Shown: positions 24,212-61,407, numbered from the stretch's first letter. The stretch is DNA of 64,000 bases from Spirochaetia bacterium (GCA_965203055.1 OZ241863.1:2912001-2976000); one strand, 5' to 3'. A program made the numbers and translations. The notes: generated by a model not told the origin, from the letters alone.

Positions 24212-26407
24212 TTGGGTAGAGCATCGTTGGTATCGCTGTTGCTGGCCGCCGGCATCGCCGCGCTGATGGCCTGTTCCCAGGCGGCGCGCCCGGCCGCCGC
24301 GCCCGCCGACCCGGCCCAGGGGGGGGGGGGTAAGCCGCCGAGCGAGCCGCCGCCAACCCCGCAGCCGGCAGAGCCGGCAGAGAAGCGCTGGAGGATCGGC
24401 GCGGCTGACTTTGGCGATGATGAACTGAACCTGGCGGGCGCAGTGTCCAACCGTTCCGCGCCGTATGCCTGGGAGCGGGTCACCGCCCGCAACGTGCGCG
24501 TTTCGATCGGCGGACACGAGCTGCCGTTCACGAGCACGAGCGCCAAGCCGGTCTTCGCGTCCGACATCTCCGGCGCGGAGTGGACGGTTGCCGCCGAGGT
24601 GCGGGCGGGGGAAGTGGTGCTGGTGCTCACCGCCCCCGATCAGTCGGGCGCCGGCGACACGGTTGCGTCGGTCACGATCACCAACCCGGGGAGCGGCTAC
24701 ACGACAGACCCGACCGTGACCTTTTCGGCGCCGCCGTCCGGCGGCGCCACCGCAACCGGCACCGCGACGGGGTCCCGGTACGTCGACTCCGTGACGATTA
24801 CGACCGCCGGGAGCGGCTACACCTCGGTTCCCACCGTGACCTTTTCGGCCCCGCCGTCCGGCGGCACGGCAACCGGCGCCGCGGTGGGGTCCGGTACCGT
24901 CGATTCCGTGACGGTGGGAACCGCCGGGAGCGGCTACACCTCCGTTCCCAGCGTGACGTTCGGGGCGGCGCCGTCCGGCGGCACCACGGCCGCCGGCGCC
25001 GCGGTGGGGTCCGGGTACGTCGATTCCGTGACGGTCGGAACCGCCGGGAGCGGCTATACGGCGGACCCTGCGGTGACGTTTTCGGGCGGAGGAAGCGGCG
25101 GCGGTGCGGCCGCCTCCGCGGTGCGGCAATCCGGCGTAGCGTCAGTGACGATCACGGACCGGGGGAATACCTATACCTCTGACCCCAGCGTGACGTTTGG
25201 GGCGCCGCCGCCCGGCGGCACTACGGCGACCGGCACCGCAACGCGGAGATCCGAAGTTATCATTGTGCAGATGTCGAACTTGGGGAGCGGTTACACGTCT
25301 GTCCCAACCGTTACCTTTGGCGCGCCGCCGTCCGGTGGCACCCGGGCAACCGGCACAGTGGTGATAAGTGGCGGTCAAGTGTCTTCCGTAACCGTCACGA
25401 ACGGGGGGAGCGGCTACACCTCCACCCCTTCCGTCACGTTTTCGGGAGGAGGGGGCAGTGGTGCGGCCGGCACCGCGGTGAGAAGCGGCGGTCAAGTGTC
25501 TTCCGTAACCGTCACGAACGGGGGGAGCGGCTACACCTCGGCCCCTTCCGTCACGTTTTCGGGAGGAGGGGGCAGCGGTGCGGCCGGCACCGCGGTGATA
25601 AGTGGCGGTCCGGTGAGTTCCGTAACCGTCACGAACGGAGGGAGCGGCTACGCCTCGGCCCCTTCCGTCACGTTTTCGGGAGGAGGGGGCAGCGGTGCGG
25701 CCGGCACCGCGACTCTGGGAAGAACCAGAATAGAGGCCGTGACGATCACGACCCCGGGGAGCGGCTACACCTCCGCCCCTTCCGTGACGTTTTCGGCCGC
25801 GACGGTCACGCGGTTCACGGCGACCGGAACCGCGGTGCTGGAAAGCGGCGTGGCGTCGGTGACGGTCACGAACCGGGGGAGCGGCTACACCTCCGTCCCG
25901 ACCGTGACCTTCGGAGCAGCGCCGGGCGGCGGCACCACCGCAACCGGCACCGCGGCGCTGCGCTACGGCGTAGCGTCGGTGACCGTGACGAACGGCGGGA
26001 GCGGCTACACCTCGCCCCCGACCGTGACCTTCGCGGCAGCGCCGAGCGGCGGCGCCACGGCCGCCGGTACCGCGGACATGCGCTACGGCGTAGCGTCGGT
26101 GACCGTCATGAACGGAGGGAGCGGCTACGCCTCCGCCCCCACCGTGACCTTCGCGGCGGCGCCGAGTGGCGGCACCACGGCCGCCGGCACCGCGGTGCTG
26201 CGAACCGGCGTAACGTCGGTGACGGTCACCAACGGTGGGAGCGGTTACACCGCTGCCCCAACCGTGACCTTTGCGGCGCCGGCCAGTGGCACCACCGCGA
26301 CCGGCACGGCCAAGCTGGCGGAGGGCGGCTACGATCAATACCAGAACCTGTATTGGGCGCGCCAGACGCTGGCCGGCAAGCAGCTTCTGGTCGAGCTGGC
26401 GGACTAG
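24212..26407 (+). CDS. Surface lipoprotein with 14 tandem ~40-aa V.SVT.T..GSGYT..P.VTF repeats (paralogue 1)
   Basis: GGAGG RBS then TTG 24212 (alternative ATG 24176); lipobox-like ALMA-C; repeats counted from the translation. Confidence 0.8.
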
Positions 26408-26513
26408 GACACGGCTGCTGACCGGGAGCTTCCATCAGCCTGGGTAGCAGGCGACTCCTGCCGGCGGCGCTCACGCCGCCCGACCGGCGGAGCAACGGCA
26501 AGTGGCATCCTCC

Positions 26514-26609
26514 ATGACGACCACGTTGAACATCTCCGCGGAAGCGATGGCGCGCGTGCGCCAACTCGCGCTAAGCCGCCGACCTCGGCTTGGTGAACTC
26601 GCTCCGTGA
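26514..26609 (+). pseudogene. Truncated VapB/RHH-type antitoxin-like fragment
   Basis: Hand translation MTTTLNISAEAMARVRQLALSRRPRLGELAP* resembles the M.TTL.I N-terminus of VapB-like antitoxins; only 31 aa. Confidence 0.4.
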
Positions 26610-26681
26610 CGCCGATTTTGGAAATGCGCCCCATGGTTTGACGATTTGCGACATTCGGTGTAATGTAGTCGAGACTGGAGG

Positions 26682-26966: not shown

Positions 26967-27009
26967 ACGTTGAAGAGCCGGTCGAAATGCCGTAGTTGCC
27001 CCTTCCTAT

Positions 27010-27072
27010 AGCAACCTTCGTACGGCCGAAATGTCCAGGGACAGATACCTGCAACTCTTCATGAAGCTGTAG
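27010..27072 (+). pseudogene. C-terminal remnant of a HicA-family toxin
   Basis: Hand translation SNLRTAEMSRDRYLQLFMKL* directly after hicB resembles HicA C-termini; no intact N-terminus. Confidence 0.5.
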
Positions 27073-27304: not shown

Positions 27305-27333
27305 TTGACGCCGGCGTAGCGAGAGGCTACGGT
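27305..27333 (+). promoter_or_regulatory. Putative sigma70 promoter of the Rpn gene
   Basis: TTGACG-N17-TACGGT, 13 nt before ATG 27347. Confidence 0.5.
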
Positions 27334-27346
27334 CGCCATCGGGTTC

Positions 27347-28423
27347 ATGGCTGACGATCACGCATCGGACCAACCACGGTCTGCCGACCCACCGCCGGTC
27401 AGCCAGCGGCACGACAAGTACTTCTACCGCGTGTTCTCCGATCTCGAGAACGCCGCCGGCCTGTTGCGCTCCTACCTGCCCCAGGAACTCGCCAGCACGC
27501 TGCGGTGGTCCACCCTGACCCACCGGCCTAGCCGCTTCGTCAGTGACGACTGGCGCAGTCGCGAGGCCGACCTGCTGTTCTCCGTCGAGCGCGAGCTCTC
27601 CGGCCCGCCGGTGCTCGTCTTGGTGCTGCTCGAACATCAGTCCACGCCCGACCGCTGGATGCGGCTGCGGTTGCTGCATTACTGCCTGATGGCCTGGATG
27701 CAGTGGCACCGCGAGCACGAGCAGGAGCGGCAGTTGCCGCTGATCGTGCCGGTGGTATTCTATCAGGGAGCGGAGCCATGGAGATTCTCGCGGCAGTTCG
27801 CGGAGTTGGTTGCCGGCGCGGAGTCCGACCCGGGTTGGGTGCCGCAGTTCGAGCACCTGCTGATCGACCAGACCGAGCAGAACCCGGAGTCGGTGGAGGG
27901 GACGCTCGGCGCGCGGCTGGCGCAGCTCGGGTTGATGGCCGAGTTCCGCCGCGCGGGCTGGAAGGGCTGGGGCGACTTGCTCAACCAAGCGTTACAGTTG
28001 GTGGAGGAGCTGTATCCGGCCGAAGGGTTCGACGTGGTGGCGCTGCACGTGGAGTACTTGGTGCTGGCGCTGAAGACGAATGAGCAGCAGCAGGCGTTCG
28101 CGGACGCGCTACGACGGACCGTGCCGGGCCGAGGAGGAGAGATAATGACCTACGTGCATCAGATGATCGAAGAGGGTATCCGGGAGGGCGTTCGGGAGGG
28201 CATCCGGGAGGGCATCCGGGAGGCCCGCCAACAGGCCCGCCAAGAAGGCCGCCAGGAAGGCCGCCAGGAAGGCGAGATGAGGGGACAGTTGCAAACCATC
28301 CAGCGATTCCTGGAACGCGATGTACCGTGGTCCATCATAGAGGCGGCCACCGGCATCGACGAGGCTACGTTCCGGCGCCTCAAGCAGCAGCTCGACGACA
28401 ATGGCGCCGGCCACGCCGAATAA
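27347..28423 (+). CDS. Rpn-family recombination-promoting nuclease/putative transposase (YhgA-like)
   Basis: HDKYF, ADLLFSV, LLEHQSTPDRWM.LR, LPLIVPVVFYQG..PW, and a C-terminal EG.R/EGRQ low-complexity run. Confidence 0.9.
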   Translation: MADDHASDQPRSADPPPVSQRHDKYFYRVFSDLENAAGLLRSYLPQELASTLRWSTLTHRPSRFVSDDWRSREADLLFSVERELSGPPVLVLVLLEHQSTPDRWMRLRLLHYCLMAWMQWHREHEQERQLPLIVPVVFYQGAEPWRFSRQFAELVAGAESDPGWVPQFEHLLIDQTEQNPESVEGTLGARLAQLGLMAEFRRAGWKGWGDLLNQALQLVEELYPAEGFDVVALHVEYLVLALKTNEQQQAFADALRRTVPGRGGEIMTYVHQMIEEGIREGVREGIREGIREARQQARQEGRQEGRQEGEMRGQLQTIQRFLERDVPWSIIEAATGIDEATFRRLKQQLDDNGAGHAE

Positions 28424-28476
28424 GGGCCGCCGGCAATACCCACGCCCGGCCTGTCAGCCGCAGGGCATCGAACTAG

Positions 28477-30033: not shown

Positions 30034-31524
30034 TTGGGTAGAGCATCGTTGGTATCTCTGTTGCTGGCCGCCGGAATCGCCGCGCTGATGGCCTGTTCCC
30101 AGGCGGCGCGCCCGGCCGCCGCGCCCGCCGCCCCGGCCCAAGGGGAGCCGCCGAGCGAGCCGCCGCCAACGCCGCAGCCGGCAGCTCCGGTAGAGCAGCG
30201 CTGGACGATCGGCGCGGCTGACTTTGGTGACGATGAACCGGACCTGACGGGCGACGCGTCCAGCCGTTCCGCGCCGTATGCCTGGGAGCGGCTCACCGGC
30301 GGCGAGGCGCGCGTTACGGTTTCGATTGGCGGGCACGAGTTGCCGTTCACCAGCACGAGCGCCGAGCCGGTCTTCGCGTCCGATCTCTCCGGCGCGGAGT
30401 GGACGGTTTCCGCCGAGGTCCGGGCGGGCGCACTGGTGCTGGTGCTCACCGCCAAGGATCAGAGGGAAAACCTGGGCTTCGTCGAATCCGTCATGATCAC
30501 GACCCCGGGAAGCGGCTACACGGCGGCCCCGACCGTGACGTTCGCGGCGCCGCCGCCCGGCGGCGCCGCGGCGACCGGCACCGCGGCAACGTCCGGCAGA
30601 GTCGATTCGGTGACGATTACGACCGCCGGGAGCGGCTACCCGGCGGCTCCAGCCGTGACGTTCGCGGCGCCGCCGGACGGCGGCACCACGGCAACCGGCG
30701 CCGCCGAGGTAGGGTCCGGCATCGTCGATTCGGTGACGATTACGACCGCCGGGACCGGCTACACGGCGGTTCCCACCGTGACGTTTACGGGAGGCGGCGG
30801 CAGCGGTGCGGTCGCCACCGCGGTGCGGCAAAGCGGCGTAGCGCGAGTGAATATTTCGGCCCGAGGGGGCTTTTATTCCACACAACCATCCGTGACGTTT
30901 GGCGCGGCGCCTTCCGGCGGCACCACGGCGACCGGCACCGTAGTTCGGCAAGGCACCGAAGTACACGCAGTGACGATCACGAACCACGGGAGCGGCTACA
31001 CGTCCGCCCCTACCGTTTCGTTTTCGGCCCCGAATTTTGGCGGCTCCGGCTTTCAGGCAAGCGGCACCGCGGTACTGCAAACCGGCATAGCGTCGGCGAC
31101 GGTCTCGAACGGGGGGAGCGGCTACACGTCAGCCCCCACCGTGGCCCTCGGGGCAGCGCCGAGCGGCGGCACCACCGCCGCCGGCACCGCGGGCATGCTC
31201 TACGGCGTAGCGTCGGTCGATGTCACGGACGGGGGGCGCGGCTACACCGCTGCCCCTGCCGTGACCTTTGCGGCGGCGCCGGGCGCCGGCACCACGGCCG
31301 CCGGCACCGCGGTCGTGCTCTACGGCGTAGCGTCGGTCGATGTCACGGACGGGGGGCGCGGCTACTTCGTTGCCCCTGCCGTGACCTTCGCGGCGCCGGC
31401 CAGCGGTACCACCGCGACCGGCACGGCCAAGCTGGCAGAGACCGGCAACGATCCATTCCAGAACCTGTATTGGGCGCGCCAGACGCTGGCGGGCAAGCAG
31501 CTTCGGGTGGAGCTGGCGGACTAG
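30034..31524 (+). CDS. Surface lipoprotein with 8 GSGYT repeats (paralogue 2)
   Basis: Same GGAGG/TTG start and signal peptide as 24212; same C-terminus [20 protein letters not shown]. Confidence 0.8.
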   Translation: MGRASLVSLLLAAGIAALMACSQAARPAAAPAAPAQGEPPSEPPPTPQPAAPVEQRWTIGAADFGDDEPDLTGDASSRSAPYAWERLTGGEARVTVSIGGHELPFTSTSAEPVFASDLSGAEWTVSAEVRAGALVLVLTAKDQRENLGFVESVMITTPGSGYTAAPTVTFAAPPPGGAAATGTAATSGRVDSVTITTAGSGYPAAPAVTFAAPPDGGTTATGAAEVGSGIVDSVTITTAGTGYTAVPTVTFTGGGGSGAVATAVRQSGVARVNISARGGFYSTQPSVTFGAAPSGGTTATGTVVRQGTEVHAVTITNHGSGYTSAPTVSFSAPNFGGSGFQASGTAVLQTGIASATVSNGGSGYTSAPTVALGAAPSGGTTAAGTAGMLYGVASVDVTDGGRGYTAAPAVTFAAAPGAGTTAAGTAVVLYGVASVDVTDGGRGYFVAPAVTFAAPASGTTATGTAKLAETGNDPFQNLYWARQTLAGKQLRVELAD

Positions 31525-32519: not shown

Positions 32520-32611
32520 GGCGAAGTGACTGCCACGGCTCGCGCCGAGTCTGACCGACAACGCGCATCGCTGTCCATCATCCGAGGGCCGGCATCGCCT
32601 ATAATCACGGC

Positions 32612-34123
32612 GTGACTTCCTGCTCGGCAGACGGCGACCGGCGCCTGGAGTGGGCCGCGCTTGCCGCCGTGACGCTGATCGGCTTCGGCCTGCGGTGGTC
32701 GTATCTGGGCGACCCGATACGGGTCGACGAGGGGAAGATCGCGGCCTGGGTGCAGTCCTGGACGTTCCGGGAAGTGGCGTCGTTCTACGAAAACATCGGC
32801 AACCACATCCTCCATACGCTGCTCGTGGACCTCTGCCACACGCTGTTCGGGCTGCAACCGTGGAGCATTCGCCTGCCGGCTCTGCTGCCGGGCGCCGCCT
32901 TGATTCCGGCGACCTACCTGGTCGGCGCGGCGCTGTTCTCCCGGCGGTCGGCGCTGCTGGCCGCCGGGCTGGCGGCGGGCGCTCCGTTCCTGGCGTTGTT
33001 TTCGGTGATCTCGCGCGGCTACGTGCTGCAGAGCGCGCTGCTCATGGCGCTGGCGTGGCTGCTGCTGAGGCTTGCCGAGTCCCGGTGGCGGGGCCTGACG
33101 CTCGCCGCCGGCGTCCTCGCCGCCGGCATCGTCGGAGCGCTCGCCCTCCACACCCTTCCCACCACGTTGTTCGCGCTTCCCGGCCTCTACGCCGGCGCGG
33201 CGCTGCGGACGGCGTGGGTCGCCAAGCCGGCCGCAGCGGCGCGGGGCCGGACCGGCAGCGCGGGCCGGCTGCTGCCGGCGCTGGTGGTCACCGGCGGCCT
33301 GGCGCTGCTCCTCTACCTGCCGGTATTCCTGGGGACCGAGTGGGAACGGATCGCGGCCAACCGGTACACCGCGGCGCAGCCGGCGGCCCTGCTCTGGGAA
33401 CGACTGGTGGACCGTATGGCGGGGACCGCCCGGCACTGGGCCTGGGACCTTCCCGTGCCGGCGCAGGCGCTGTGGGCGCTGGCGGCGGGCGCCGGCCTGC
33501 TGGCCGCGGCGCGCCGGCGGCAGGCCTCGTCGGCGTGGTTCGTGGTGCTCGTGATCACTTCGACCGTGGCCTTCTCGGTGGCGCTGCGGCGGGTGCCGCC
33601 GGTGCGCGGCTACCTGTTTCTCATGCCGTTCTTCCTGCTGCTGCCGGCCGTCGCCATCGACGCCGCGGCGCAGCGCCTGGCGCCGGGGCGCGGGGCGGCG
33701 GCAACGCGCTTCGCCGTCCCGCTGCTGGCGGTGCTGCTGGCCGCCGCCGGCGCGGTCTGGACCTGGTCGGGCGGCTGGCTGGAGGCCGAGCGGGGCCTGC
33801 TCAGGGGGCGTTACGCCGGCGCCGAGAGCGCCATGCGGGCGCTTGCGGCGGTGGTGGGCGAACGGGACGTGGTGGCGCCGCCGGCGTGGCCGTATCGCTA
33901 CTACGCCGCGCTGCACGACCTGCCGATCCGCTTCGCAGCCCCCGAGTCAGGAGACATCGGGGCCGGCGACGTCGACAACGTCTACCTGCTGGTCCTGGAC
34001 GGCGACGAGGTGAGCGGCGCCGTCGAGCGGTACGGACTCCGCGACCGGTTCGGGGAGCCGCGCCCGTTCGGCGTGTTCCCGGATCTTCGGGTCTTCGTCG
34101 TCAGCCGGCAGCGCGGCCGGTAA
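32612..34123 (+). CDS. GT-C fold membrane glycosyltransferase (PMT_2/GT39-like)
   Basis: First TM ends LR, followed by a loop with DE (PIRVDE), NHILH, IRLPALL, SRGY; polytopic. Confidence 0.75.
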   Translation: MTSCSADGDRRLEWAALAAVTLIGFGLRWSYLGDPIRVDEGKIAAWVQSWTFREVASFYENIGNHILHTLLVDLCHTLFGLQPWSIRLPALLPGAALIPATYLVGAALFSRRSALLAAGLAAGAPFLALFSVISRGYVLQSALLMALAWLLLRLAESRWRGLTLAAGVLAAGIVGALALHTLPTTLFALPGLYAGAALRTAWVAKPAAAARGRTGSAGRLLPALVVTGGLALLLYLPVFLGTEWERIAANRYTAAQPAALLWERLVDRMAGTARHWAWDLPVPAQALWALAAGAGLLAAARRRQASSAWFVVLVITSTVAFSVALRRVPPVRGYLFLMPFFLLLPAVAIDAAAQRLAPGRGAAATRFAVPLLAVLLAAAGAVWTWSGGWLEAERGLLRGRYAGAESAMRALAAVVGERDVVAPPAWPYRYYAALHDLPIRFAAPESGDIGAGDVDNVYLLVLDGDEVSGAVERYGLRDRFGEPRPFGVFPDLRVFVVSRQRGR

Positions 34124-35677: not shown

Positions 35678-35790
35678 TTCGGGTGCTCCTCCTCCGCAGC
35701 CGGCCCGTGCGCTTGCCGGCGCGGCGACGATACCACAGCCGGGCGATTCCGTTCATCCGTCAAGCGGCCGGCCGGCGCCGGGGCGAGGCG

Positions 35791-37359: not shown

Positions 37360-37401
37360 GGTCCGGCCATGATAGCCGAACCCCGCGCGGCTATCATCCG
37401 C

Positions 37402-39792: not shown

Positions 39793-39868
39793 TTGCGGCA
39801 GTAGCGGCGGTCGGTTCAGTGCGATGGCAGGCCCCCTGCTTCGACCACGCCGGCGCCGGGGCGGGGCG

Positions 39869-40828: not shown

Positions 40829-40850
40829 GGCGCGTCTCGATGCGGCGCGG

Positions 40851-44165: not shown

Positions 44166-44265
44166 GATAGCCTGAGCGCCGCGCCGCTATCATCCGCTCA
44201 TCCGCCTGCCTCACGGCCCTGCGCCGCGGCCGGCGCCACCCGAATCATTCGGTTGGCACTTCTCG

Positions 44266-48942: not shown

Positions 48943-48972
48943 TGCCTCCCAGGAGATACCGGCCCCGCCGGG

Positions 48973-51634: not shown

Positions 51635-51816
51635 GGCGCCACGGTACGCGGGCCGCTGCCGGTCGCGCAACTGCGTACCGGCCCCGGCTCGGTCAACCTC
51701 GGCATTGCAGCGGGAGGCAGAGGGGTCGGTCAGGCCGGTCGTCAGTCGTCAATCAGTCGTCACGCTGGTGGTTGACAAGCCGAGGGAGCGGTCTTTAGGT
51801 TTAGGTTGAAGTCTTC

Positions 51817-53160
51817 ATGGTCAAGGAGATGCGCTACCTTCCCCTTATCGTATCGGCGGTTGTCGGCATACTGCTGCTCACTACGTTGGCAGGTTGCCAG
51901 CAGGCGTCGCCCAGCGGCGCAAGGCCGGCCAATCCTCCTGCCCAACCTGCGAGTCCGCCGGCGGCCGAACCGGCAGCGGCGATCACGTGCGCGGACTCGG
52001 CGATCCGTCTGCTTGACCGCGGCGCCGGAATCCACGGCGCGATCGTATCCGACACGTTGCACCTGGGCGGGGCCACGACGCCGGTCACGTGCGCGGCGCC
52101 GGCGAACCAGTCCGTGGCCGGCGCGTTCGACCCGGCCGGGCGTGCGGCGTCATCTCATCAGTCCGAGTACTCCCTGATCGTGATTCGCTATCCCGCCGGC
52201 ACTCGGCTGTACATCATCAGCCGCCGCGCCGACGGCACCTCCTGCGTGGTCGATACCAACGACGCGTGCATTGCGGAAGTGTCCGACTTGCCGGACGGCT
52301 TCGACGTCGATGACCTGCCGGAGGACGTGCCTCCGATCATTCCCGCCGGCCGGACCGTGGTGGTGGAAGACCAGGCCAGGGCGCCGGCAGCGGCCGGCAA
52401 CCCGAATCCCCGCGACGGGGCGACCGGGGTGACGGTCGACGCGCCGGAGCTGCGCTGGACCGCGGGCGCGCGGACGGCCAGCTACGACCTCTACTGGGGG
52501 ACCGGGAGGAGCCTCGGCGCGGACGCTGCCCTGGGTACGCCGGTCCGCACTCGTTACACCGCCTGGACCATACGGAGGCCGGGCACGACCGCAGCCGACC
52601 GGAGGCTGGCAAGCGCCACGACGTACTACTGGCGGGTCGACGCGAAGAACGAGCACGGCACCACCAAGGGTACCGTGTGGTCGTTCACCACGACCGACGA
52701 TCCCGGCCCACAGCCGCCGCCGGGCGGTGGTGACCCGCCGCCGGTAACGCCGCCGCCGGCGGGCGGTGGTTACACGGCGATCACCATATCGATCGCCGAT
52801 CAAAGCGTTACCGAAGGCAACCGCGGCCGGTTGGTCTACACCTCCGGGTATACGGCGTCCACGTGGGTACCGTCTGAAGACCTGCATTGGCTCCCGGTGC
52901 GGTTGAGTCGGCCCACCCCCGAGGGGGAGCTCGTAGGATTTCAGTCGTCGGCCGGCACGGCGACGGCGGGTGATGATTACCAACTTCGCAGCGGGCAGCT
53001 GTACTTCAACCGCGGCTCTGCTTCGAAGACCCTGCATTTCGTCACGTGGGGCGACCTTGACGATGAGCCGAACGAGACGTTCACGGTGACCGTCACGCCG
53101 CCGAGTGACTGGACGTGCGCGAAGTGCACCGCGACCATCACCATCGTCGATGACGATTAG
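51817..53160 (+). CDS. Lipoprotein with FN3-like and C-terminal Calx-beta domains (copy A)
   Basis: Lipobox LAG-C; YDLYWG..TTYYWRVDAKN..G.VWSFTT; ISIAD.SVTEG..GTATAGDDY..DDEPNETFTV..ATITIVDDD. Confidence 0.8.
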   Translation: MVKEMRYLPLIVSAVVGILLLTTLAGCQQASPSGARPANPPAQPASPPAAEPAAAITCADSAIRLLDRGAGIHGAIVSDTLHLGGATTPVTCAAPANQSVAGAFDPAGRAASSHQSEYSLIVIRYPAGTRLYIISRRADGTSCVVDTNDACIAEVSDLPDGFDVDDLPEDVPPIIPAGRTVVVEDQARAPAAAGNPNPRDGATGVTVDAPELRWTAGARTASYDLYWGTGRSLGADAALGTPVRTRYTAWTIRRPGTTAADRRLASATTYYWRVDAKNEHGTTKGTVWSFTTTDDPGPQPPPGGGDPPPVTPPPAGGGYTAITISIADQSVTEGNRGRLVYTSGYTASTWVPSEDLHWLPVRLSRPTPEGELVGFQSSAGTATAGDDYQLRSGQLYFNRGSASKTLHFVTWGDLDDEPNETFTVTVTPPSDWTCAKCTATITIVDDD

Positions 53161-53231
53161 GAGCCTCGCCCCGCCAGCGAGGTGAGCGGGTTCCGGGAGG
53201 GGTCGGCCAAGGCCAAGCCCAAACCTGCCTG

Positions 53232-55388
53232 ATGCCGAACCCGCGCCGCCTGGAACGAGCCCTGGTCCGCGCCATCCGCGCGGGCGCGGCGCTGGTGCTG
53301 CTGACGCCTCTGATCGTCACGCCGGCGACCGTCTACCCGTTCGTCGTCGGCAAGGCGCTCTATTCGCGGGCCGCCATCGAAGTGGTCGTCGGCCTGTACG
53401 CGGCGCTGGCGGCCCTGCGCCCCGCCTACGCGCCGCCGCGGCGGTCGCGGCTCCTGCTGGCGCTCGCCGCGGCCCTTGCGGCAGCGCTGGCCGCGGCGGT
53501 GCTGGGCGTCAGCCCCCGGCGCAGCCTGTGGTCCGATTACGAATCGATGCAGGGCGTCGTCGACGCGGCGCACTGGTTCGCGTTCACGGTCGTCATCGCC
53601 GCCACCTTCCGCACCGCGCGGGAGTGGCGCGCGCTGTTGAACGTCAACCTCGGCGTGGGCTCGGCGATCGCCCTGCTGGCGGTGGCCAGTTCATTGGCGG
53701 TGGACCTGCCGTTCTTCGGCTCCCTGCCGGAGTACCGGTACCCGCGAATCGCCACCGTGTTCGGCAACCCCCTCTATCTCGGCGCCTACATGCTGGTGAA
53801 CGCGGTGGTCGCCGGCGGGTTCCTGGCGCGGTCGTTTGCCGGCGCCGGCGGCGGCGCCCGGTTCAGGTGGGGCCGGCTCCGGTGGGGCGCGGCGGCCGCC
53901 CTCCACCTGTGGGCGTTCACCCTGGCCGGCTCGCTCGGCGCATTGGCGGGACTCATCGCCGCCGGCGGGTTCCTCGGCGCGGCGTACCTGTTGCTGGCGC
54001 GCGCCCGGGCCGCGCGGATCGCGGGCGCGGTCGCCGCGGCGCTGGCCGCCGCCGCGGCGACCGGCCTGGCACTGCCGCTCCTCGCCGGAGGCGGCCTGCC
54101 GGAGCGCGCCATCGACTCCTCCCTCAACCCGTTGCTGCAACGGATCGACCGCCTCAGCTTCTCGACCGGGACGCTGCAAGGCCGTCTGGCTGCCTGGCAG
54201 GCGGGTCTCGCAGGTTTCGCGGCGCGGCCGCTGCTGGGCTGGGGGCCCGACAACTTCGCGGTGGTGTTGGGCCGGTACGCCGCCGCCGCCGGCGATTCGA
54301 CCATTGCGTACGTAGGGTACGCGCACAGCAAGATCGTGGAGGAGGCCGCGACCAAGGGCCTGGCCGGCCTGGCGACCTATCTGGCGGTGTGGGCGGCGGC
54401 GCTGGCCGTCATCGCGCGCGCCGGCCGGCGCGCGGACCCGGGGGAGCAGGCGCTGGTACTGTTCACCGGCGCGGCGCTGGCCGGCGCCGGCGCGCAGATC
54501 CAGACGCTGTTCGACCACAGCGCCTCGTCCCTGCAATACGCGCTGCTGTTCGGCTTCGTCATCCACCTGGAGATTCGGCAGCGGGCCGCCCGCCGGCCCG
54601 CCGGCCCGCCGGTCCCCGCAGGCAACGGGCGCCGGCGGCCCTGGCGGCGCCGTGCGGGCGCCGGGACGCGCGCTGCGCTCGCGTTGGGCGTGTTGGCGTT
54701 GGCGGGGGCCGGCCTGGCGGCCAACCGCGCCATCTACTCGGCCGCGGTCGCGCTCAAGGACAGCTATGCCGCCGAGCACTACCCGGCCGCGGTGGAGCGC
54801 GCCATCGCCGCCTTCCCGCCGCTGGCGAACCTGCCGCGGCGGCTCTGGTTCCTGAGCCTGGCGAACCACTGGCAGGAGCTGCATGCCCGCGACCCCGCGG
54901 CGGCGCAGGAGATCCTGGCGCGGGCCGACGTCGAAGCGTCGGCCGCGGTCGCCGCCGAGCCGGAGAACTGGCTGATCCAACAGGCGCTGGCCTTGATGTA
55001 CCGCGCCGCGGCGTCCACCGAACCGGAGTACCGCGCCAAGGCCGAGCGCTTCTTCCGGCAGTCGCTGGAGCTGGCCCCCCACCGCGACCGGTTCGCCGCC
55101 CCGCAGGTCGATCCCTACGGCGCGCCGCGGCAGTTGCGGGTTCGCCGTCACGGACCCGGGAGCTACACGTTGACCTGGCGCAATCCCCCCGGCTATCGGG
55201 GGAAATTCGAGGTGCAGGAGCGGGTGGGCGACGCGCAACGGACCGCGGTCGTCGACGGCACCTGGCTCCCGCTGTCGGGCATGAGCCCCGGCATCTACTT
55301 CTATCGGGTGCGGGCCTGCGGGAGCGGCAACCGGTGCGGCCGGTGGGCGTCATGGCCGCCCATTCACGTCCCGGCGGGCGGCGGCTGA
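53232..55388 (+). CDS. O-antigen ligase/O-oligosaccharyltransferase-like membrane protein with a C-terminal FN3-like domain
   Basis: YPFVVGK, RIATVFGNP, R..AW..G..RPLLGWGPDNF, YAHS..E..G..GL (Wzy_C); tail YTLTW..YFYRVRAC. Confidence 0.8.
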   Translation: MPNPRRLERALVRAIRAGAALVLLTPLIVTPATVYPFVVGKALYSRAAIEVVVGLYAALAALRPAYAPPRRSRLLLALAAALAAALAAAVLGVSPRRSLWSDYESMQGVVDAAHWFAFTVVIAATFRTAREWRALLNVNLGVGSAIALLAVASSLAVDLPFFGSLPEYRYPRIATVFGNPLYLGAYMLVNAVVAGGFLARSFAGAGGGARFRWGRLRWGAAAALHLWAFTLAGSLGALAGLIAAGGFLGAAYLLLARARAARIAGAVAAALAAAAATGLALPLLAGGGLPERAIDSSLNPLLQRIDRLSFSTGTLQGRLAAWQAGLAGFAARPLLGWGPDNFAVVLGRYAAAAGDSTIAYVGYAHSKIVEEAATKGLAGLATYLAVWAAALAVIARAGRRADPGEQALVLFTGAALAGAGAQIQTLFDHSASSLQYALLFGFVIHLEIRQRAARRPAGPPVPAGNGRRRPWRRRAGAGTRAALALGVLALAGAGLAANRAIYSAAVALKDSYAAEHYPAAVERAIAAFPPLANLPRRLWFLSLANHWQELHARDPAAAQEILARADVEASAAVAAEPENWLIQQALALMYRAAASTEPEYRAKAERFFRQSLELAPHRDRFAAPQVDPYGAPRQLRVRRHGPGSYTLTWRNPPGYRGKFEVQERVGDAQRTAVVDGTWLPLSGMSPGIYFYRVRACGSGNRCGRWASWPPIHVPAGGG

Positions 55389-57731
55389 CCGCCGGTTCGG
55401 CTCCGCGCCGGCCGGCACCGGGACCTCGACGCTCCAGAGCTGGCCCTGCCCGCTGATGAACTGGCCGGTGCGGAGGCCGGCGACCGCGTACTCCGGCAAC
55501 GGCGCCAGCGCCACGCACGCTTCGCCGAGCAGCGCTCCGTATTCCCGGTAATCGAAGCCCCGGTTCTCGAAGCCGTGCGGCCGGTCCTGCGGAGACAGGT
55601 CCTCCTCGTCCGCCGGAATCAGGTGCAGGAAGAACCGCTCCCGCAGGTCCTCCGCCGCGCACGGCTCCTTGTGGTACGCCAGCGCCCGGCCGTCGAGATA
55701 GAGGTCGAAGGCCGCGCGCGCGACCGGCGCTCCCCAGGCGCCGGAGCGGATCGCCGCGCGCGTTTGCCGGTAGCGCTGCGCGGTCGGCCCGGCCGCGAAC
55801 TCCACGCTCCAGAGCTGCCGCCCGCTCTGCCGAACGAATTGCCCGGTGCGGATGCCGGTGAGCTCGTAGTCGGGCAGCGTCACGGCCGCCAGGCAGGTCC
55901 CGCCGCGCCGCACGCCGCCCTCCCAGAAGTAGAAGTCGAAATTGCCGAACCCCTGTTCCCGCTGGTAGGCGGGCAGGTCGGCGGCGTCCGCCGGGAAGAG
56001 GTGCAGGAAGAACTTCTCCCGCAGGTCCTCCGGCGCGCACCCGTCCTTGACGTAGGTGAGCGTGGCGCCGTCGAGGTACAGGTCGAAGTGCGAGCTGGCG
56101 GCCGGGAATGCCGCCGCGGTCGTATCGTCGGCCAGCGACGGGTCGAGTCCGGTCACCGTGAAGATGACGTCGTGGTAGATGCGGCGCTCATATAGCACCG
56201 GCGAAAACGGAAATCTGCGGCGCTGGTCGGCCACCGAATCGCTGGTGATGACGTAGTACCGGTGCGCTGCCTCGGGCACCCCGTCGGTGAGGACGATTCT
56301 GCGCCGCTCGGCCGCGGGGAGTATGCGCAGATTGGCGCGGGCGAGCTGCAGGCCCCAGCCGTTCGCGGCGACGACGTGGATCGTTGCGTGCGGATCATAC
56401 CGGAGCAGATACTCCAGCCCTTCGCGGTACTCGGTTCCCCAATACATCACCTGATAGCGGTCGCTCAAGCGCTCCGGCGTGCGGCGGTCGACCAGGAAGT
56501 TGAAGTAGGCCTGCTGATAGGGATGCAGGCGCGCGAGGTCGACCGCCATGCCGGCCAGCGCCGCCGCGGCCAGCGCGTAGATTCCCTGCCGGAGCCAGCG
56601 CCGCGGCGCCGCGGCCAGCAGCCGGCGCAGGCCGTAGACCGCCAGCAGGCACGACGGCGCGGCCAGGAAGTACATCTGCCGCCAGCCGTTGTAGAGGTTG
56701 GCGTTGACCGCGATGACGGCCGCCACCGGCAGCGCCAGACAGGCGGCCAGCAGCGCCCCGAAGCGGGTGACGGGCGTGTTGCGGAGGAGCTCGCGCGGGC
56801 GCGTCAGACCGCGTCCGAGTACGGCAACGATCCCGGTCAGGCTCAGCAGCAGCGCCGCCGGCGGCGTGGTGATCGCCATCCAGGTCGGCAGGTAGTGCGG
56901 CGGAATCTCCGGCGCGCGCACCACCTCGCCCTGAAACAGCGTCGCAATGCGGACCGGGTGGCGCGCCAGCGTGACGACGGCGTCGATCAGCTCCAGCGGG
57001 TTGCGCCAGAGATAGGGGGAGACCGCGTACAGGGTCGCCGCCGCGGCCAGCAGGAACGCGCCGCCGGTCGCCAGCGCCCGCCGCCGCTCCGCCGGCCCGC
57101 CCGCCTGCAGCAGATCGAGCGCCCGCAGCGCCGGCACCGCCGCGCACAGCAGCAGGCCCATGATCCGCAGGTTGACCAGCACGCCCACGCCCAGCCCGCA
57201 GAGCGCGAACGCGCCGGCGGTGTCGCGGCGGAAGGCGCGCTGCGTCAGGTAGAGGGCGATCATGAACATGACCAGGAACGGGATGTCCTTGGTGTTGAAG
57301 AAGGAGTGGGCGTACAGGCGGGGCTGCAGCAGGAACAGCAGCAGGGCGAACAGCGCCAGGCGGCGGTCGCAGAACAGGCGATAGGTCAGCAGCCAGCAGA
57401 AGAAGCCGCCGGTGAGGAAGAACAGGTGGGTCAGCAGGTGGCGGCTGAGGTAGACGGCGCGGCTGTCGGTGAGGCCGAGCAGCCGCTCGACCAGGATCAG
57501 CGGCGCTTCGAACACGGCGCCGTAATACCGGTCATGGCGGTCCGGCAGGGCGCCGTCACCCAGCGCGTAGGCGATCACCGCCCGGCCGGTGCTGCGCTGC
57601 GCGGCCTCGTCCGACGCCGCGCCGTAGTCGTCCAGGAGGGCGGCGCCCAGCGCCGCGAACGCGATCAGCGCGATGAGCGCGTCACGCCACGGCAGCCGCC
57701 GCGCGGCGCACGGATGCGCCGCCGTCACCAC
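55350..57731 (-). CDS. GT-C/PMT-like membrane glycosyltransferase (paralogue 3)
   Basis: YGAASDE loop; near-identical core to paralogues 1 and 2; two C-terminal modules; 3' end overlaps the convergent gene by 39 nt. Confidence 0.8.
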   Translation of the reverse strand: MVTAAHPCAARRLPWRDALIALIAFAALGAALLDDYGAASDEAAQRSTGRAVIAYALGDGALPDRHDRYYGAVFEAPLILVERLLGLTDSRAVYLSRHLLTHLFFLTGGFFCWLLTYRLFCDRRLALFALLLFLLQPRLYAHSFFNTKDIPFLVMFMIALYLTQRAFRRDTAGAFALCGLGVGVLVNLRIMGLLLCAAVPALRALDLLQAGGPAERRRALATGGAFLLAAAATLYAVSPYLWRNPLELIDAVVTLARHPVRIATLFQGEVVRAPEIPPHYLPTWMAITTPPAALLLSLTGIVAVLGRGLTRPRELLRNTPVTRFGALLAACLALPVAAVIAVNANLYNGWRQMYFLAAPSCLLAVYGLRRLLAAAPRRWLRQGIYALAAAALAGMAVDLARLHPYQQAYFNFLVDRRTPERLSDRYQVMYWGTEYREGLEYLLRYDPHATIHVVAANGWGLQLARANLRILPAAERRRIVLTDGVPEAAHRYYVITSDSVADQRRRFPFSPVLYERRIYHDVIFTVTGLDPSLADDTTAAAFPAASSHFDLYLDGATLTYVKDGCAPEDLREKFFLHLFPADAADLPAYQREQGFGNFDFYFWEGGVRRGGTCLAAVTLPDYELTGIRTGQFVRQSGRQLWSVEFAAGPTAQRYRQTRAAIRSGAWGAPVARAAFDLYLDGRALAYHKEPCAAEDLRERFFLHLIPADEEDLSPQDRPHGFENRGFDYREYGALLGEACVALAPLPEYAVAGLRTGQFISGQGQLWSVEVPVPAGAEPNRRSAAARRDVNGRP

Positions 57732-57794
57732 GGCGTCAGGCGCGGCGCGGCGCGCGCTCGCGCCGGCCGGGCGCCGCGCGGCTCACCGCCGGCC

Positions 57795-59714
57795 TCACGG
57801 CTCCGCTCCGCCGGCCTCACGGCCCGGCTCCGCCGCCGGCGCCTCGAGCTCCGCGGCCCAGAGCTCGCGCCCCGTATCTCTGACGAGCTGGCCGGTTCTG
57901 AGGCGGGCGATGGCGTAGTCCGGCAGCGTCACGGCTGCGAGACAGACGCCTTCCCAGAGCACTCCCTGCCACCAGAACTCGAAGTCGAGGGTGTCGAAGC
58001 CCCGCTCCCGGATGCCGGAGGCAAGATCGCCATCGGAGGCCAGCTCGTCCGCGGCGGCCGGGAAGACGTGCAGGAAGAAGCGCTCCCGGACATCCGCCCG
58101 GCCGCAAGGCTCCTTCGCGTACACCAGCCGGTCCCCGGCCAGATACAGGTCGAACACCTCGCCGGCGGCGCGCCGCCGGCCGGCCAGCGAGGCCTGCAGC
58201 GCGCGGAACTCGGCCAGCTCCTGCGCCAGGTAGTGATCGTCGTCGAACGGCTCGGGCGCCGCCGCCGGCGCGCGCACCATGGTCTCGCCCATGATCGACC
58301 CGATGCCGCCGTAGGCCCGGTACCGCCGCGGGAAATTGGGCCGCGGCACGTACCGTTGCCGGGTATCGACCCGGAACACTTCGTTGCCGGCCGCGTCCAC
58401 CTCGACCACGGTCAGCGGCAGGGAGTCGCTCACCCGGGTGGTGGCTCGCACGCCGAAGTTGATCAGCGTATTGCCGTTGCTCAGCCGGTAGGCGCTGCTC
58501 ATGGCCGGCGAGTAGATGTCCGGCGTCGGCCGGTATTCCCACACCTTCACCGCGGTGCCGGCCGCCTCGTCCAGCCGCAGCTCCAGCGCGCGCGAGTAGG
58601 CGCCGCCCTCGGCGTCGGGCCGCCCCCAGCCGTTGTCGAACAGCAGTACGTTGCCGTCGTCGAGCTGCGCCGCGGTGTGCGGCCCGTAGAACCGATCGTT
58701 CGGGTTCGGGAACCGGTAATCGCTGTCCGGCCCGTGCAGTTGCCATTCGATCGCCCGCAGGTCGGCGCTGAGCGAGATCACCTGATTGCGCACGCGGGAC
58801 GAGATGATGAGGTTGCCGCGCGGGCCGATGCTCACCGAGTTGAGGTGCGTCCACCTGACCGTGCCGAGTTGCTCCGCGCGTCGGGTCAAGTCGCGAATGT
58901 CCCAGAACTCCCCGGCGTCCCAGACCTGCTCGACCTGTCCGCGCGCGCGGTCCCAGACGCGCAGATCGTCGACCCTGAACTCGACCTCGTCGAAGACGAC
59001 CGATTCCCGGCTCAGGTAGATCACGCGGCCATCGGCGAGCGCGAGGACCTCATGGTGCGGAATCCCCGCGGCTCCGCCCCGCTCCAACCGGTCGACCACT
59101 TCTCCCAAGGGGGTGATCTCGATCAGACCCCTCCGGGGGTCCGTGAAGAGCAAGGCGCCGCCGGGCAACTGAGCGATGGCGCCGACCTGCAACGCCCGGA
59201 CAGCGGAGGCGCCGGACGCATCGTAGTACCAGACCGGCGCCCCCGTTTCATCCCGGAACAGGAGGTATGCGCGTCCGTCGCCGCGCAGGTAACCGGACAG
59301 GATGAGCGGCTGCGAGCTTCTGCCGCGCGCCTGCGTCGATATGGCGGCGAGGCGCCGCGGCAGCGGTCCGGTGGTGAACCGGCCGCCCGGCCCGGCGGCG
59401 CCTTCCGCCGCGGCGCCGTCCATTGCCGAGCCGTCAGCTGCCGAGCCGTCCACGACGAAGATGGTGTAGTCGTAGGTCGTCTCCGGGCGCAGCCTGACGA
59501 GCGGGATGACGTGCGCCGCGCCCCGCTCGCTCAGCGGCGTGCGGTAGCGCCCGGCCTGCGGGTGGTCGTACTCGACGTACACCCGCGCCGCGCCTGACAG
59601 CGCTACCCGCACCTCGACGATCAGCGCGTTGCGCGCGCTGACCGACGCGCCGTGGCGCAGGACCGCGGCGGCGTCCGCCGCCGGCGCCGGCGCGGCGGCG
59701 AGCGCGATCGACAC
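57795..59714 (-). CDS. Aryl-sulfate sulfotransferase (paralogue 3)
   Basis: PHHE, WTHLNSV, SSR, FYGPHTA; the signal region is shorter than in the other two, so the start is uncertain. Confidence 0.8.
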   Translation of the reverse strand: MSIALAAAPAPAADAAAVLRHGASVSARNALIVEVRVALSGAARVYVEYDHPQAGRYRTPLSERGAAHVIPLVRLRPETTYDYTIFVVDGSAADGSAMDGAAAEGAAGPGGRFTTGPLPRRLAAISTQARGRSSQPLILSGYLRGDGRAYLLFRDETGAPVWYYDASGASAVRALQVGAIAQLPGGALLFTDPRRGLIEITPLGEVVDRLERGGAAGIPHHEVLALADGRVIYLSRESVVFDEVEFRVDDLRVWDRARGQVEQVWDAGEFWDIRDLTRRAEQLGTVRWTHLNSVSIGPRGNLIISSRVRNQVISLSADLRAIEWQLHGPDSDYRFPNPNDRFYGPHTAAQLDDGNVLLFDNGWGRPDAEGGAYSRALELRLDEAAGTAVKVWEYRPTPDIYSPAMSSAYRLSNGNTLINFGVRATTRVSDSLPLTVVEVDAAGNEVFRVDTRQRYVPRPNFPRRYRAYGGIGSIMGETMVRAPAAAPEPFDDDHYLAQELAEFRALQASLAGRRRAAGEVFDLYLAGDRLVYAKEPCGRADVRERFFLHVFPAAADELASDGDLASGIRERGFDTLDFEFWWQGVLWEGVCLAAVTLPDYAIARLRTGQLVRDTGRELWAAELEAPAAEPGREAGGAEP

Positions 59715-59853
59715 CGCCGCCAGAGTGAGGATCGAGCGCCGACGCGGCGCCGGCGCTCGAGCGGGGTCCCGGTGAGAACGGGGCGCCCGAATCGCTACCT
59801 GCCTTGGGGAATACGCCCGGCCGCCGACGGTTGGCCGCGCCGGCCAACCGCCA

Positions 59854-61407
59854 TCACCCTTCGCCTACCCGGACCCGAAGCTGCCTGCCGGACAGCGTGT
59901 CGCGCGCCCAAAACAGGTTCTGGTACCGGTCGTTGCCGCTTTCCGCCAGCACTGCGACGCCGGTCGCGGTGGTGCCTGTGGACGGCGCCGCCGCAAAGGT
60001 GACGGTGGGGGCCGAAGTATAGCCGCTCCCCCCGTTCGTGATCGTCACTGACGTAACCTCGGTTCTCAACGTCGCGGTGCCGACGGCCGTGGTGGCGCTG
60101 CCGCCGGACGGCGCTGCCGCAAAGGTGACGGTGGGGGCCGAGGTGTAGCCGCTCCCCGGGTTCGTGATCGTCACGTCCGCCACGTCATAGTTCATCACCG
60201 CGGTACCGATCGCCGTGGTGCCGCTGCGCGGTGGCGAAAAGTACACCGCGGGCGCCGAGGTATAGCCGCTCCCCCCGCTCGTGATCGTCACTCCGTCGAT
60301 CTTCTCGCGCAGCACCGCAACGCCGCGTGACCCGCCATCGGGATCGCCGCCGGCATTCGGGGCGAAGGTCACGGTGGGGGCCGAGGTGTAGCCGCTCCCC
60401 CGGTATCTGTCATCCCAATAGAACCCGACGCGGTCGACCTTGTCGCCGGAAAGGAACACGGTGACTATACTCGGCTTGGTCCCGCCCGGCCGCTGCGGTG
60501 CCGAGAATATGATCCGGGGCGTCGCGGTCCAGCCGCTCCCCGCCTCCGTGATCGTCACTGACTCGACTCTGTCGGGCCCAAACACGGTGCCGGCAGCCGT
60601 GGCGCCGCCGGCCGGCGGGGCCCCGAACGCGACGGTTGCGGTCGGGGTGTAGCCGGTCCCGCCGCTCGTGATCGACACCGACGCGACTTGACCGATTGCC
60701 ACTGCGGCGGCGGCAGCCGTGGTGCCGCCGGACGGCGCTGCCGCAAAGGTGACGGCGGGGGCCGAGGTGTAGCCGGCTCCCGGCGTCGTGACCCTCACGG
60801 ACGCGACTTGACCGGGCCCCGCCGCGGTGCCGGCGGCTGTGGCGCCGGCGGCCGGCGCGGCCCCGAACGTCACGGCCGGGGGCGCGGTGTAGCCGCTCCC
60901 GCGGTTCGTGATCCTGACCGACTCGACGTAGTCCAGCGCTTCCGTCTGATTCGGGGCGGTGAGCACGAGCACCACCGCTCCCGCACGGACTTCGAAGTCA
61001 ACCCTCCACTCCGCGCCGCTGAGATCGTTCTCGAAGCGCGGTGCGGTCGCCTTGTTCGTGAACGGCAGGTCGTGGCCGTCGATCGACACGGTCACCTTCT
61101 CGCCCTCGGCGCCGGTGATCCCGTCCCAGGCGAACGGCTTGGAACGGTTGGACGTTGCGATCAGGTTCGCGTCGTCATCGAAGGCGTCCTCCCCGATGGA
61201 CCAGATCTTCTCTGCCTGCTGTGTCTGCTGTGGCGGCGGGTCGGCCTCAGGCGGGGAGGCAGGCGAGGCAGGCGACGCCGGGGCGGCGGCGGTCGTTGCG
61301 GGTGGCCGCGCCGCCTGCGGGCACGCCGTCAGCGCGATGCCGGCGGCCACCGCGAGCGCCAGCATCGCTGCCGTCCGCTCCCTTACGCCCTTGGTTTCAG
61401 TCATCAT
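59854..61407 (-). CDS. Surface lipoprotein with 8 GSGYT repeats (paralogue 3)
   Basis: Lipobox-like ALTA-C; same flanking domain and C-terminus YQNLFWARDTLSGRQLRV; ATG 61407. Confidence 0.8.
   Translation of the reverse strand: MMTETKGVRERTAAMLALAVAAGIALTACPQAARPPATTAAAPASPASPASPPEADPPPQQTQQAEKIWSIGEDAFDDDANLIATSNRSKPFAWDGITGAEGEKVTVSIDGHDLPFTNKATAPRFENDLSGAEWRVDFEVRAGAVVLVLTAPNQTEALDYVESVRITNRGSGYTAPPAVTFGAAPAAGATAAGTAAGPGQVASVRVTTPGAGYTSAPAVTFAAAPSGGTTAAAAAVAIGQVASVSITSGGTGYTPTATVAFGAPPAGGATAAGTVFGPDRVESVTITEAGSGWTATPRIIFSAPQRPGGTKPSIVTVFLSGDKVDRVGFYWDDRYRGSGYTSAPTVTFAPNAGGDPDGGSRGVAVLREKIDGVTITSGGSGYTSAPAVYFSPPRSGTTAIGTAVMNYDVADVTITNPGSGYTSAPTVTFAAAPSGGSATTAVGTATLRTEVTSVTITNGGSGYTSAPTVTFAAAPSTGTTATGVAVLAESGNDRYQNLFWARDTLSGRQLRVRVGEG

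Follow-up and report, generated by a model that had tools for sequence, protein, structure and literature searches.

Three repeat lipoprotein genes in a spirochaete genome

The stretch of DNA analysed here (the window) comprises 64,000 nucleotides from an uncultured Spirochaetia bacterium (GCA_965203055.1 OZ241863.1:2912001-2976000; G+C content about 71%) and carries three paralogous lipoprotein genes, P0001, P0002 and P0003, whose products contain long arrays of a repeat unit of approximately 40 residues (Table 1). The three proteins share one layout, in which a signal peptide ending in a lipobox cysteine (LMAC in P0001 and P0002, LTAC in P0003) is followed by about 35 Pro-rich residues, a domain of about 95 residues ending in ..VLVLTA.DQ (the N-domain), the repeat array and a last block of about 25 residues with the pattern QNL.WAR.TL.G.QL.V... 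(the C block). A first reading of the DNA made without database searches, referred to below as the sequence-only reading, had described 14, 8 and 8 copies of a GSGYT repeat lying between conserved N-terminal and C-terminal blocks. Both end blocks are indeed kept in all three translations, and a hidden Markov model (HMM) trained on the units of the window itself (core V.SVT.T..GSGYTS.PTVTF....GG..A.GTA) returned the same three counts. At the DNA level, Tandem Repeats Finder reported periods of 117-126 bp with 75-93% matches for these arrays. The 5' ends of P0001 (24175-24318) and P0002 (29997-30140) are near-identical, including about 35 bases before the TTG start, which suggests a recent duplication or gene conversion. 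Searches of Pfam and NCBIfam returned no family for the whole proteins or for their parts, PADLOC returned none, PDB sequence searches with P0002 and with the repeat profile gave nothing meaningful, and a scan for promoters and terminators gave nothing exceeding chance.

A lineage-restricted family with mostly even numbers of units

The genome to which the window belongs (G000, one contig of 4.56 Mb) contains 27 intact copies in which both end blocks are present, together with a handful of frameshifted copies, scattered over the chromosome. The N-domain is present in five of 92 genomes of the same order, which all belong to a single family-level group and have between 5 and 32 matches (numbers of matches, not of copies: 5 in G207, 22 in G206, 26 in G217 and 29 in G213), and was absent from 200 other genomes sampled from the class. 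At E <= 1e-3, only 59 matches were found among 1.84 billion representative proteins. No form with n = 0, that is, a base domain without an array, was found among these 59, the short matches being fragments or frameshifted pieces. The genes constitute a lineage-restricted lipoprotein multigene family of an uncultured high-GC spirochaete.

Unit numbers in G000 are 4, 6 (three copies), 8 (five), 10, 12 (eight) and 14 (nine), and all 27 are even. Across the complete copies of the five genomes, the number is even in 92 of 96, with a range of 4 to 30: in 27/27 copies of G000, 23/26 of G213 (the odd ones having 1, 9 and 11 units), 20/20 of G206, 18/18 of G217, including one copy of 30 units, and 4/5 of G207 (the odd one having a single unit). 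In a wider set that includes metagenome proteins and kept only those whose HMM unit count fitted their span, 112 of 117 are even. When the proteins were clustered at 80% identity, 53 of 59 clusters had even members only, and at 70% identity this was true of 34 of 40. The sequence-only reading, which had called the number always even, was right for the window and for G000 and overstated the case elsewhere. It had also named frequent odd numbers among homologues as an argument against its idea that the array folds back on itself; odd homologues are rare (4/96 in the genomes, 5/117 in the wider set and 6/59 clusters at 80% identity), and the idea is not refuted by them. The odd members are single, recent-looking variants, some of them lacking an in-frame signal peptide. 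One of them, L022, has 9 units; its orthologue has 12, and L022 is without three near-identical units.

The repeat as such appears to impose no even number. In unrelated Bacteroidota-type and phage-like proteins, arrays of 9 units are as common as arrays of 10, and in 120 long unrelated proteins with the repeat, 70 of 198 arrays are odd.

Two unlike halves, symmetric losses and a divergent centre

According to the sequence-only reading, the array is inserted into one base domain, with repeat i pairing with repeat n+1-i, and the linkers of the first half differ from those of the second. The linker asymmetry is real, as a statistical tendency. Among the 27 G000 paralogues, first-half junctions are of the Gly/Pro/Ser type in 73 cases, hydrophobic in 19 and of other types in 28, whereas second-half junctions are of the Gly/Pro/Ser type in only 8, hydrophobic or aromatic (L-R-Y-G-like) in 91 and of other types in 21.

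A unit-level alignment with a 12-unit paralogue as the reference shows how the shorter and longer copies differ. A 10-unit copy lacks units 2 and 10, one from each half; in P0002, units 2 and 10 and the central pair 6-7 are missing; and P0001 corresponds to the 12-unit plan with two more copies of unit 7, beside the centre. Even numbers would likewise be explained if the proteins were linear strings of beads in which neighbouring units (2m-1, 2m) form each domain and the termini lie far apart. This would be the simplest way of folding, most known stalk proteins are described as linear (PMC9704523), and P0001 grew by a local tandem triplication. However, the shorter paralogues have lost one unit per half rather than two neighbours, and the units differ by half, with no A-B alternation along the array.

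The centre of the array is also where paralogues of equal length differ most. The lowest per-unit identities were found for units 3-4 at n = 8 (0.39), units 6-7 at n = 12 (0.61 and 0.59) and units 7-8 at n = 14 (0.48 and 0.51), and cysteine makes up 0.58% of the residues of central units against 0.17% elsewhere. In the 30-unit copy of G217 (L087), which has an in-frame lipobox, the divergent, Cys-bearing units are exactly units 15 and 16; its orthologue in G206 (L086) carries a frameshift after unit 14. The earlier claim of divergence near the middle thus stands for paralogues of equal n, while the odd-looking VIIVQMSNL unit of P0001 is unit 6, one off centre. In a subfamily with four units (L049, L051, L054 and L074, from G206 and G217), the pair of units at the centre has been heavily remodelled and contains two to four Cys. 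These Cys-bearing centres could be disulfide-braced tips.

Covariation between units

For the analysis of covariation, 767 units of 103 distinct proteins were aligned to the unit HMM, unit pairs were pooled, and mutual information with average product correction (APC) was calculated over 40 x 40 unit positions. When unit n+1-k was taken as the partner of unit k (367 unit pairs, effective number of sequences (Neff) 177), 20 of the top 25 pairs fell within the antiparallel band p+q = 41-49, which covers 20% of the cells, and the number was still 20 with the central pair omitted. Shifting the partner by one unit left 2 (+1) and 1 (-1) of the top 25 in the band, shifting it by two units 6 (+2) and 5 (-2), and a translational partner, k+n/2, gave 9 of 25; 20 row shuffles gave between 2 and 10. 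Neighbouring units gave 11-13 of 25, a count for which the band takes in residues adjacent in sequence. The covariation peak at n+1-k, with the central pair in or out, again speaks against linear beads.

Within a unit, covariation traces a meander of three strands, b1-b2-b3, with b2-b3 sums of 56-60 and the b1-b2 pair 6-23. Between units, it would set b1 of unit k against b3 of unit n+1-k, the two b2 strands against each other and b3 against b1, with each bead made of two interlocking three-stranded motifs.

Three strands and turn motifs in each unit would also suit a continuous beta-solenoid with one unit per coil and three strands per turn, a fold seen in many phage fibres and spikes, and the repeat does occur in phage tail and baseplate proteins. 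A solenoid, however, predicts no parity, the partners shifted by one unit are without antiparallel covariation, and the structural models described below show antiparallel meanders with no parallel stacking. We consider this explanation hardly credible.

Structure predictions

AlphaFold2 folded mature P0002 with a mean predicted local distance difference test score (pLDDT) of 91.3 and a predicted template modelling score (pTM) of 0.58, and units 3-6 alone, a 161-residue fragment, with values of 94.5 and 0.78. In the model of mature P0002, long strands continue from the third strand of a unit into the first strand of the next, and the C block forms a helix followed by the final strand; one 12-residue helix is the only helix in the model. 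The topology was read from structural alignments of solved domains, not from coordinates. Solved domains of 55-85 residues align over model residues 1..444 (base), 139..378 (units 2 and 7) and 217..297 (units 4 and 5) of P0002, and, in the four-unit model, over 42..121 (inner bead) and 3..159 (outer bead).

In a complex prediction, the N-domain with units 1-2 of P0002 was set against units 7-8 with the C block of the same protein. The interface score ipSAE was 0.72 (three runs, 0.71-0.73), and the best of three controls reached 0.00. Of 157 solved complexes, 116 reached the mark applied to this score, as did 2 of 215 mismatched pairs; these rates are only approximate here because our own alignment was supplied. 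The runs agreed in at least 99% of contacts, with a partner pLDDT of at least 89. The lowest-error contacts are anti-diagonal: between units 1 and 8, residues 98-102 meet 412-415, 116-118 meet 398-400 and 128-132 meet 383-389; between units 2 and 7, residues 138-142 meet 373-376 and residue 158 meets 358. The first strand of the N-domain is predicted to meet the last strand of the protein (residue 5 with 438), which, together with the base alignment over 1..444, would be the completion of the N-terminal domain by the C-terminal strand that the sequence-only reading had proposed to look for.

That reading had also stated that beads in a line with distant termini would contradict it; no such arrangement was predicted. 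Fragments of the base that are not connected by the chain are predicted to bind each other, and the model ranges 1..444, 139..378 and 3..159 each fit single small domains. With the symmetric losses and the covariation, this leaves linear beads distinctly unlikely. An antiparallel homodimer, in which two extended chains lie head to tail, unit k pairs with unit n+1-k of the other chain and the resulting flat rod is anchored at both ends, has to be weighed differently, as neither the covariation nor a two-chain prediction can separate contacts within a chain from contacts between chains. Such a dimer, however, would not require the unit number to be even, as it is in 92 of 96 copies; it would leave the divergent centre with its insertions and Cys as well as the different linkers of the two halves unexplained; and AlphaFold2 folds a single chain back on itself with a pLDDT of 91-94. 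We regard the homodimer as unlikely.

Searches with the models returned no relative on which a fold could be based. Foldseek against the PDB gave no match at E <= 1e-3 for either model. In VIA-align, the best hit of the whole P0002 model was a phage neck protein, over the base (Z 7.0 with 55 residues aligned); the best Z of a second look was 6.3. The tip bead of the whole model matched the sheath of Klebsiella phage KP1 (Z 5.2) and residues 99-187 of the T4 sheath protein gp18 (Z 4.7), and the four-unit model matched both at Z 4.9 (gp18 residues 99-187 with a root-mean-square deviation of 3.2 over 74 aligned residues). Since all these Z-scores are below the tool's bar of about 8, no fold is claimed. 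The best score in the ESM Atlas, 0.81 (DUF6252), was too low to use.

Putative phase switching

A lipobox lies upstream of all 27 G000 copies and is in frame in 21; in the other six, signal peptide and mature part are encoded in different frames. Fifteen of the 27 copies, or 16 if one G7 is included, carry a poly-G tract of 10-17 bases, which lies either ahead of the start or between lipobox and N-domain. The G12 tract of P0001 is in frame, and P0002 has lost its tract. Such tracts would act as on/off switches for many copies. Within the tract of P0001, three public runs show a one-base deletion at 24320, each time in no more than one or two minor contigs; the contigs, 100-400 nt long in the four runs covered, are short, and paralogues also map onto them and confound the reading. 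We infer a surface-exposed, switchable repertoire of tip-presenting rods on this uncultured spirochaete, which might serve binding or shielding.

A fold-back model and its strength

Based on the even unit numbers, the symmetric losses, the covariation and the predictions, which all support the earlier suggestion of an array inserted into a base domain with unit i opposite unit n+1-i, we propose the following hypothetical architecture, in which (i) a lipidated cysteine and a Pro-rich tether of about 35 residues would hold a small base domain, made of the ~95-residue N-terminal domain closed by the C-terminal helix and strand, with the repeat array in effect inserted into it; (ii) units 1 to n/2 would run outward and units n/2+1 to n back; (iii) each unit would form a three-stranded meander, and unit k and unit n+1-k would interlock antiparallel (b1-b3', b2-b2', b3-b1') into one bead of about 80 residues; (iv) beads would be fused into a rod, because the third strand of a unit runs on into the first strand of the next, with a rod length set by n/2 (2.5-2.8 nm per pair by our own estimate from strand lengths); (v) the two central units, the part differing most between paralogues, would form the exposed tip; and (vi) units would be gained or lost only in twos, with one in each arm or both at the tip. 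We hold this fold-back architecture to be highly probable, and the whole explanation, a switchable family of fold-back rods that present their tips, to be probable. Ligand binding at the tip is a tentative suggestion that we would sooner doubt than assert. A rigid tethered rod with a hypervariable tip, present as many paralogues that differ in length and switch at random, would fit a variable binding coat or a shielding coat. The sequence-only reading had suggested adhesion or a phage decoy; the rods may act as a decoy against phages with this same repeat, the shared unit being the one observation behind that idea.

Several points weigh against this model or limit its reach. The structural evidence is wholly computational: the family, its parity, the symmetric losses, the covariation, the divergence at the tip and the tracts are features of the sequences, to which the models add a predicted pairing of units in three dimensions. 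The structure predictors and the covariation analysis are not fully independent, because they draw on the same co-evolution signal, and covariation between the N-domain and the C block (9 of the top 30 pairs are N-C pairs) is too thin to inform at a Neff of 31. The switch between linker types, located by a crude best split, falls no more than one unit from n/2 in just 15 of the 27 copies, so that the claimed difference between halves holds statistically and less well as a marker of the turn. Parity, too, has its exceptions, with n = 1, 1, 9 and 11 in the genomes and 5, 5, 7 and 7 in metagenome proteins; some of the odd copies have an in-frame lipobox (L091 with n = 11, P0029 with n = 5 and P0036 with n = 7), and parity is therefore a strong bias rather than a law. 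Nine copies of G206 and G217 were scored as having four units by their span (166-172 residues) where the HMM found three, because it missed one divergent unit; four of the nine were checked by eye. In the unrelated proteins with the repeat there is a mild excess of even arrays (128 vs 70), so part of the bias may stem from counting or from pairwise duplication. Finally, the adjustable length suggested by the sequence-only reading is found between paralogues but hardly between genomes: orthologues in G000 and G213 are 92-99% identical and share the same n in 19 of 20 reciprocal-best pairs. Length classes are therefore fixed for each gene, with the repertoire arising from paralogues, and length is not tuned over short time scales.

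Genomic surroundings and habitat

The window is part of a surface-glycan island (18305-24176 and 32555-63997), and the neighbours of the three genes include an ATP-binding cassette (ABC) exporter, GT2 and PMT_2 glycosyltransferases, a sulfotransferase, arylsulfotransferases, an O-antigen ligase, Calx-beta proteins and transposases (Table 1). On the minus strand, a Calx-beta gene, P0003, an arylsulfotransferase gene and a PMT_2 gene stand in a row. A link of the family to PMT_2 and arylsulfotransferase genes was considered and rejected, as the clustering reflects an island at 2.78-2.99 Mb, outside which the majority of the family is located. The window contains genes of transposase and nuclease type, and no gene for phage structure or phage replication was found in it. 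Sequencing runs of several studies labelled as sponge and marine metagenome contain pieces identical or nearly identical to window positions 24150-26450; none of the runs listed was an RNA run.

Table 1. Positions of the three lipoprotein genes, their parts and neighbouring features, counted from the first nucleotide of the window.
Feature	Position	Strand	Details
P0001 lipoprotein gene	24212..26407	+	731 aa, 14 repeat units; TTG start, GGAGG 8 nt upstream
P0001 G12 tract	24319..24330	+	between lipobox and N-domain; in frame, codes GGGG
P0001 N-terminal base domain	24380..24643	+	aa 57-144
P0001 repeat array, units 1-14	24656..26332	+	aa 149-707
P0001 units 7-9	25373-25723	+	recent 117-bp triplication, 93% at DNA level (Tandem Repeats Finder)
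P0001 central units 7-8	25373..25606	+	predicted tip pair
P0001 C-terminal block	26333..26404	+	aa 708-731
P0002 lipoprotein gene	30034..31524	+	496 aa, 8 repeat units; TTG start, GGAGG 8 nt upstream; without poly-G tract
P0002 N-terminal base domain	30190..30474	+	aa 53-147; first strand predicted to touch the protein's last strand
P0002 repeat array, units 1-8	30475..31449	+	aa 148-472
P0002 central units 4-5	30832..31080	+	predicted tip bead; one-domain alignment in both models
P0002 C-terminal block	31450..31521	+	aa 473-496; helix then final strand in model
P0003 lipoprotein gene	61407-59854	-	517 aa, 8 repeat units
P0003 N-terminal base domain	60937..61212	-	aa 66-157
P0003 repeat array, units 1-8	59935..60933	-	aa 159-491
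P0003 central units 4-5	60307..60573	-	most divergent by unit comparison (..FLSGDKVD / RVGFYWDDRYRG..)
P0003 C-terminal block	59857..59934	-	aa 492-517
GT2 glycosyltransferases	19038-20546, 63101-63997
ABC exporter	22299-24176		directly before P0001
YhgA-like transposase	27320-28420	+	between P0001 and P0002
PMT_2 genes, four	32555-34120, 37402-40335, 41658-44183, 55350-57779
B12/radical-SAM gene	34133-35749
AAA-ATPase_like + PDDEXK_9 gene, three copies	35791-37398, 39869-41422, 50045-51745	-
19-bp tandem repeat	40294 and 50470		same in the two places
Arylsulfotransferase genes, three	45050-47374, 46960-48969, 57795-59861
Calx-beta domain protein	51805-53157	+
Wzy_C ligase	53154-55385
Calx-beta domain protein	61566-62942	-	directly upstream of P0003

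Comparison with known systems

Phase-variable lipoprotein families are known from mycoplasmas, where Vlp and Vaa proteins combine many paralogues, in-frame repeats and homopolymer tracts that shift the reading frame. The spirochaete family resembles them in its many paralogues, its repeats and its frame-shifting homopolymer tracts. It differs in that the protein and the phylum are other ones, the tracts are G tracts in a high-GC genome, and the unit number follows a structural parity rule.

The claim of the sequence-only reading that similar GSGYT..PTV repeats occur in phage structural and tail proteins is borne out by PHROGs 460, 19630, 701, 5342 and others, which match the repeat in all three proteins at E 1e-24 to 1e-75, and by 53 matches in BFVD at E <= 1e-3, mostly to cyanophage baseplate and fibre proteins; weak tblastn matches fell in cyanophage tail fibre genes. 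Because the template modelling (TM) scores of the BFVD matches are only 0.13-0.26, the likeness is local to the unit and does not extend to the whole shape. In contrast to the phage virion proteins with the repeat, which lack both N-domain and C block, the spirochaete genes are chromosomal lipoprotein genes outside any virion gene set. The ~40-residue unit, for which there is no Pfam model, also recurs 4-24 times in a row in large proteins that are unrelated to the family and come from many bacteria and archaea, among them proteins with multicopper-oxidase, FN3 or Kelch domains and records named Methanoperedens, Akkermansiaceae and Cyclobacteriaceae. A search for longer homologues of the family found unrelated repeat proteins only, none of 120 having the N-domain. 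If the proposed pairing is right, it would be the first structural reading of a 40-residue repeat found widely in phage virion proteins and in the giant proteins of many phyla but without a family model, a widespread and uncurated repeat would gain a structural logic, and its copies in phage fibres and giant proteins may pair between chains or between distant arrays.

Periplasmic adaptor proteins (HlyD/MFP) of tripartite efflux pumps, of the MexA/AcrA type, carry an N-terminal lipidated Cys (PMC8277102). They share with the family a hairpin topology that brings both chain ends into each domain and the resulting bead design (both as predicted here), and an N-terminal lipid anchor. Unlike the adaptors, the spirochaete rod would repeat a single type of bead 2 to 15 times; no alpha-helical hairpin, beta-barrel or membrane-proximal domain is seen in the P0002 model, and there is no Pfam or NCBIfam match. 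The spirochaete proteins form a multigene, switchable family and are not components of a pump. Comparison by hhalign with a lipoyl-bearing, adaptor-type open reading frame of the same genome (Pfam Biotin_lipoyl_2) gave a probability of 0.07%, and lipoyl domains and adaptor proteins were not among the VIA-align rows listed.

The Si3 insertion of cyanobacterial RNA polymerase is described as a 150-A rod of eight sandwich-barrel hybrid motif (SBHM) domains, in which the chain doubles back and four of the domains combine segments that lie far apart (PMC10895346). It is likewise a folded-back rod of split domains inserted into a host element, and its crystal structure (8emb_C) was the top Foldseek match of the whole P0002 model, at a non-significant E of 0.06 and a TM-score of 0.13; 8emb was not among the VIA-align rows. 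Si3 differs in being cytoplasmic and irregular, with only some of its domains split, and the parts of its description used here contain no parity rule (PMC10895346). Neither Pfam nor hhalign indicates that the adaptors or Si3 are relatives, and the likeness, so far as the models show it, is one of topology, for which these two are the nearest known cases.

A functional analogue among surface proteins is streptococcal antigen I/II, whose A and P regions form a stalk that sets the V domain apart (PMC6586375). Like the rods proposed here, it is an out-and-back stalk presenting a variable far end. Its stalk, however, is an alpha-helix wound with a polyproline helix, and it is a Gram-positive protein with an LPXTG cell-wall anchor. 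In Periscope proteins and fibrillar adhesins, tandem repeats set the reach of the functional end, and their stalks are described as 'highly anisotropic linear arrays' (PMC9704523); neither 'hairpin' nor 'antiparallel' occurs in that review (PMC9704523). Periscope proteins are marked by DNA repeats that are nearly identical and vary in number from strain to strain. The spirochaete proteins differ from them in the predicted fold-back of the array, with the presumed functional end in the middle of the sequence, in repeats matched at 75-93%, and in unit numbers that are stable between G000 and G213. A literature search for fold-back or nested stalks found no such beta-repeat stalk described, which is no proof that none exists, and a text search for 'GSGYT' returned nothing relevant.

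If the model holds, the even numbers and symmetric indels would be explained, the parity rule could be used to recognise such proteins from sequence, and the rods would offer a simple scaffold whose length can be programmed, with the two chain ends together at the base and the tip left free. Beside the bacterial surface stalks that reviews describe as linear arrays, the family would then stand as a new design; our judgement that it does represent one, with recursive nesting of half-domains (up to 15 beads), beads that close only when the two arms meet, a length of n/2, a tip encoded mid-gene and paired indels, comes close to even without reaching it. Should a structure confirm the model, this would be the most regular out-and-back repeat stalk so far, with up to 15 nested split domains. 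In summary, the family would combine two known kinds of protein, lipoproteins of hairpin topology and switchable surface lipoproteins, with a nesting that is unusually regular and deep.

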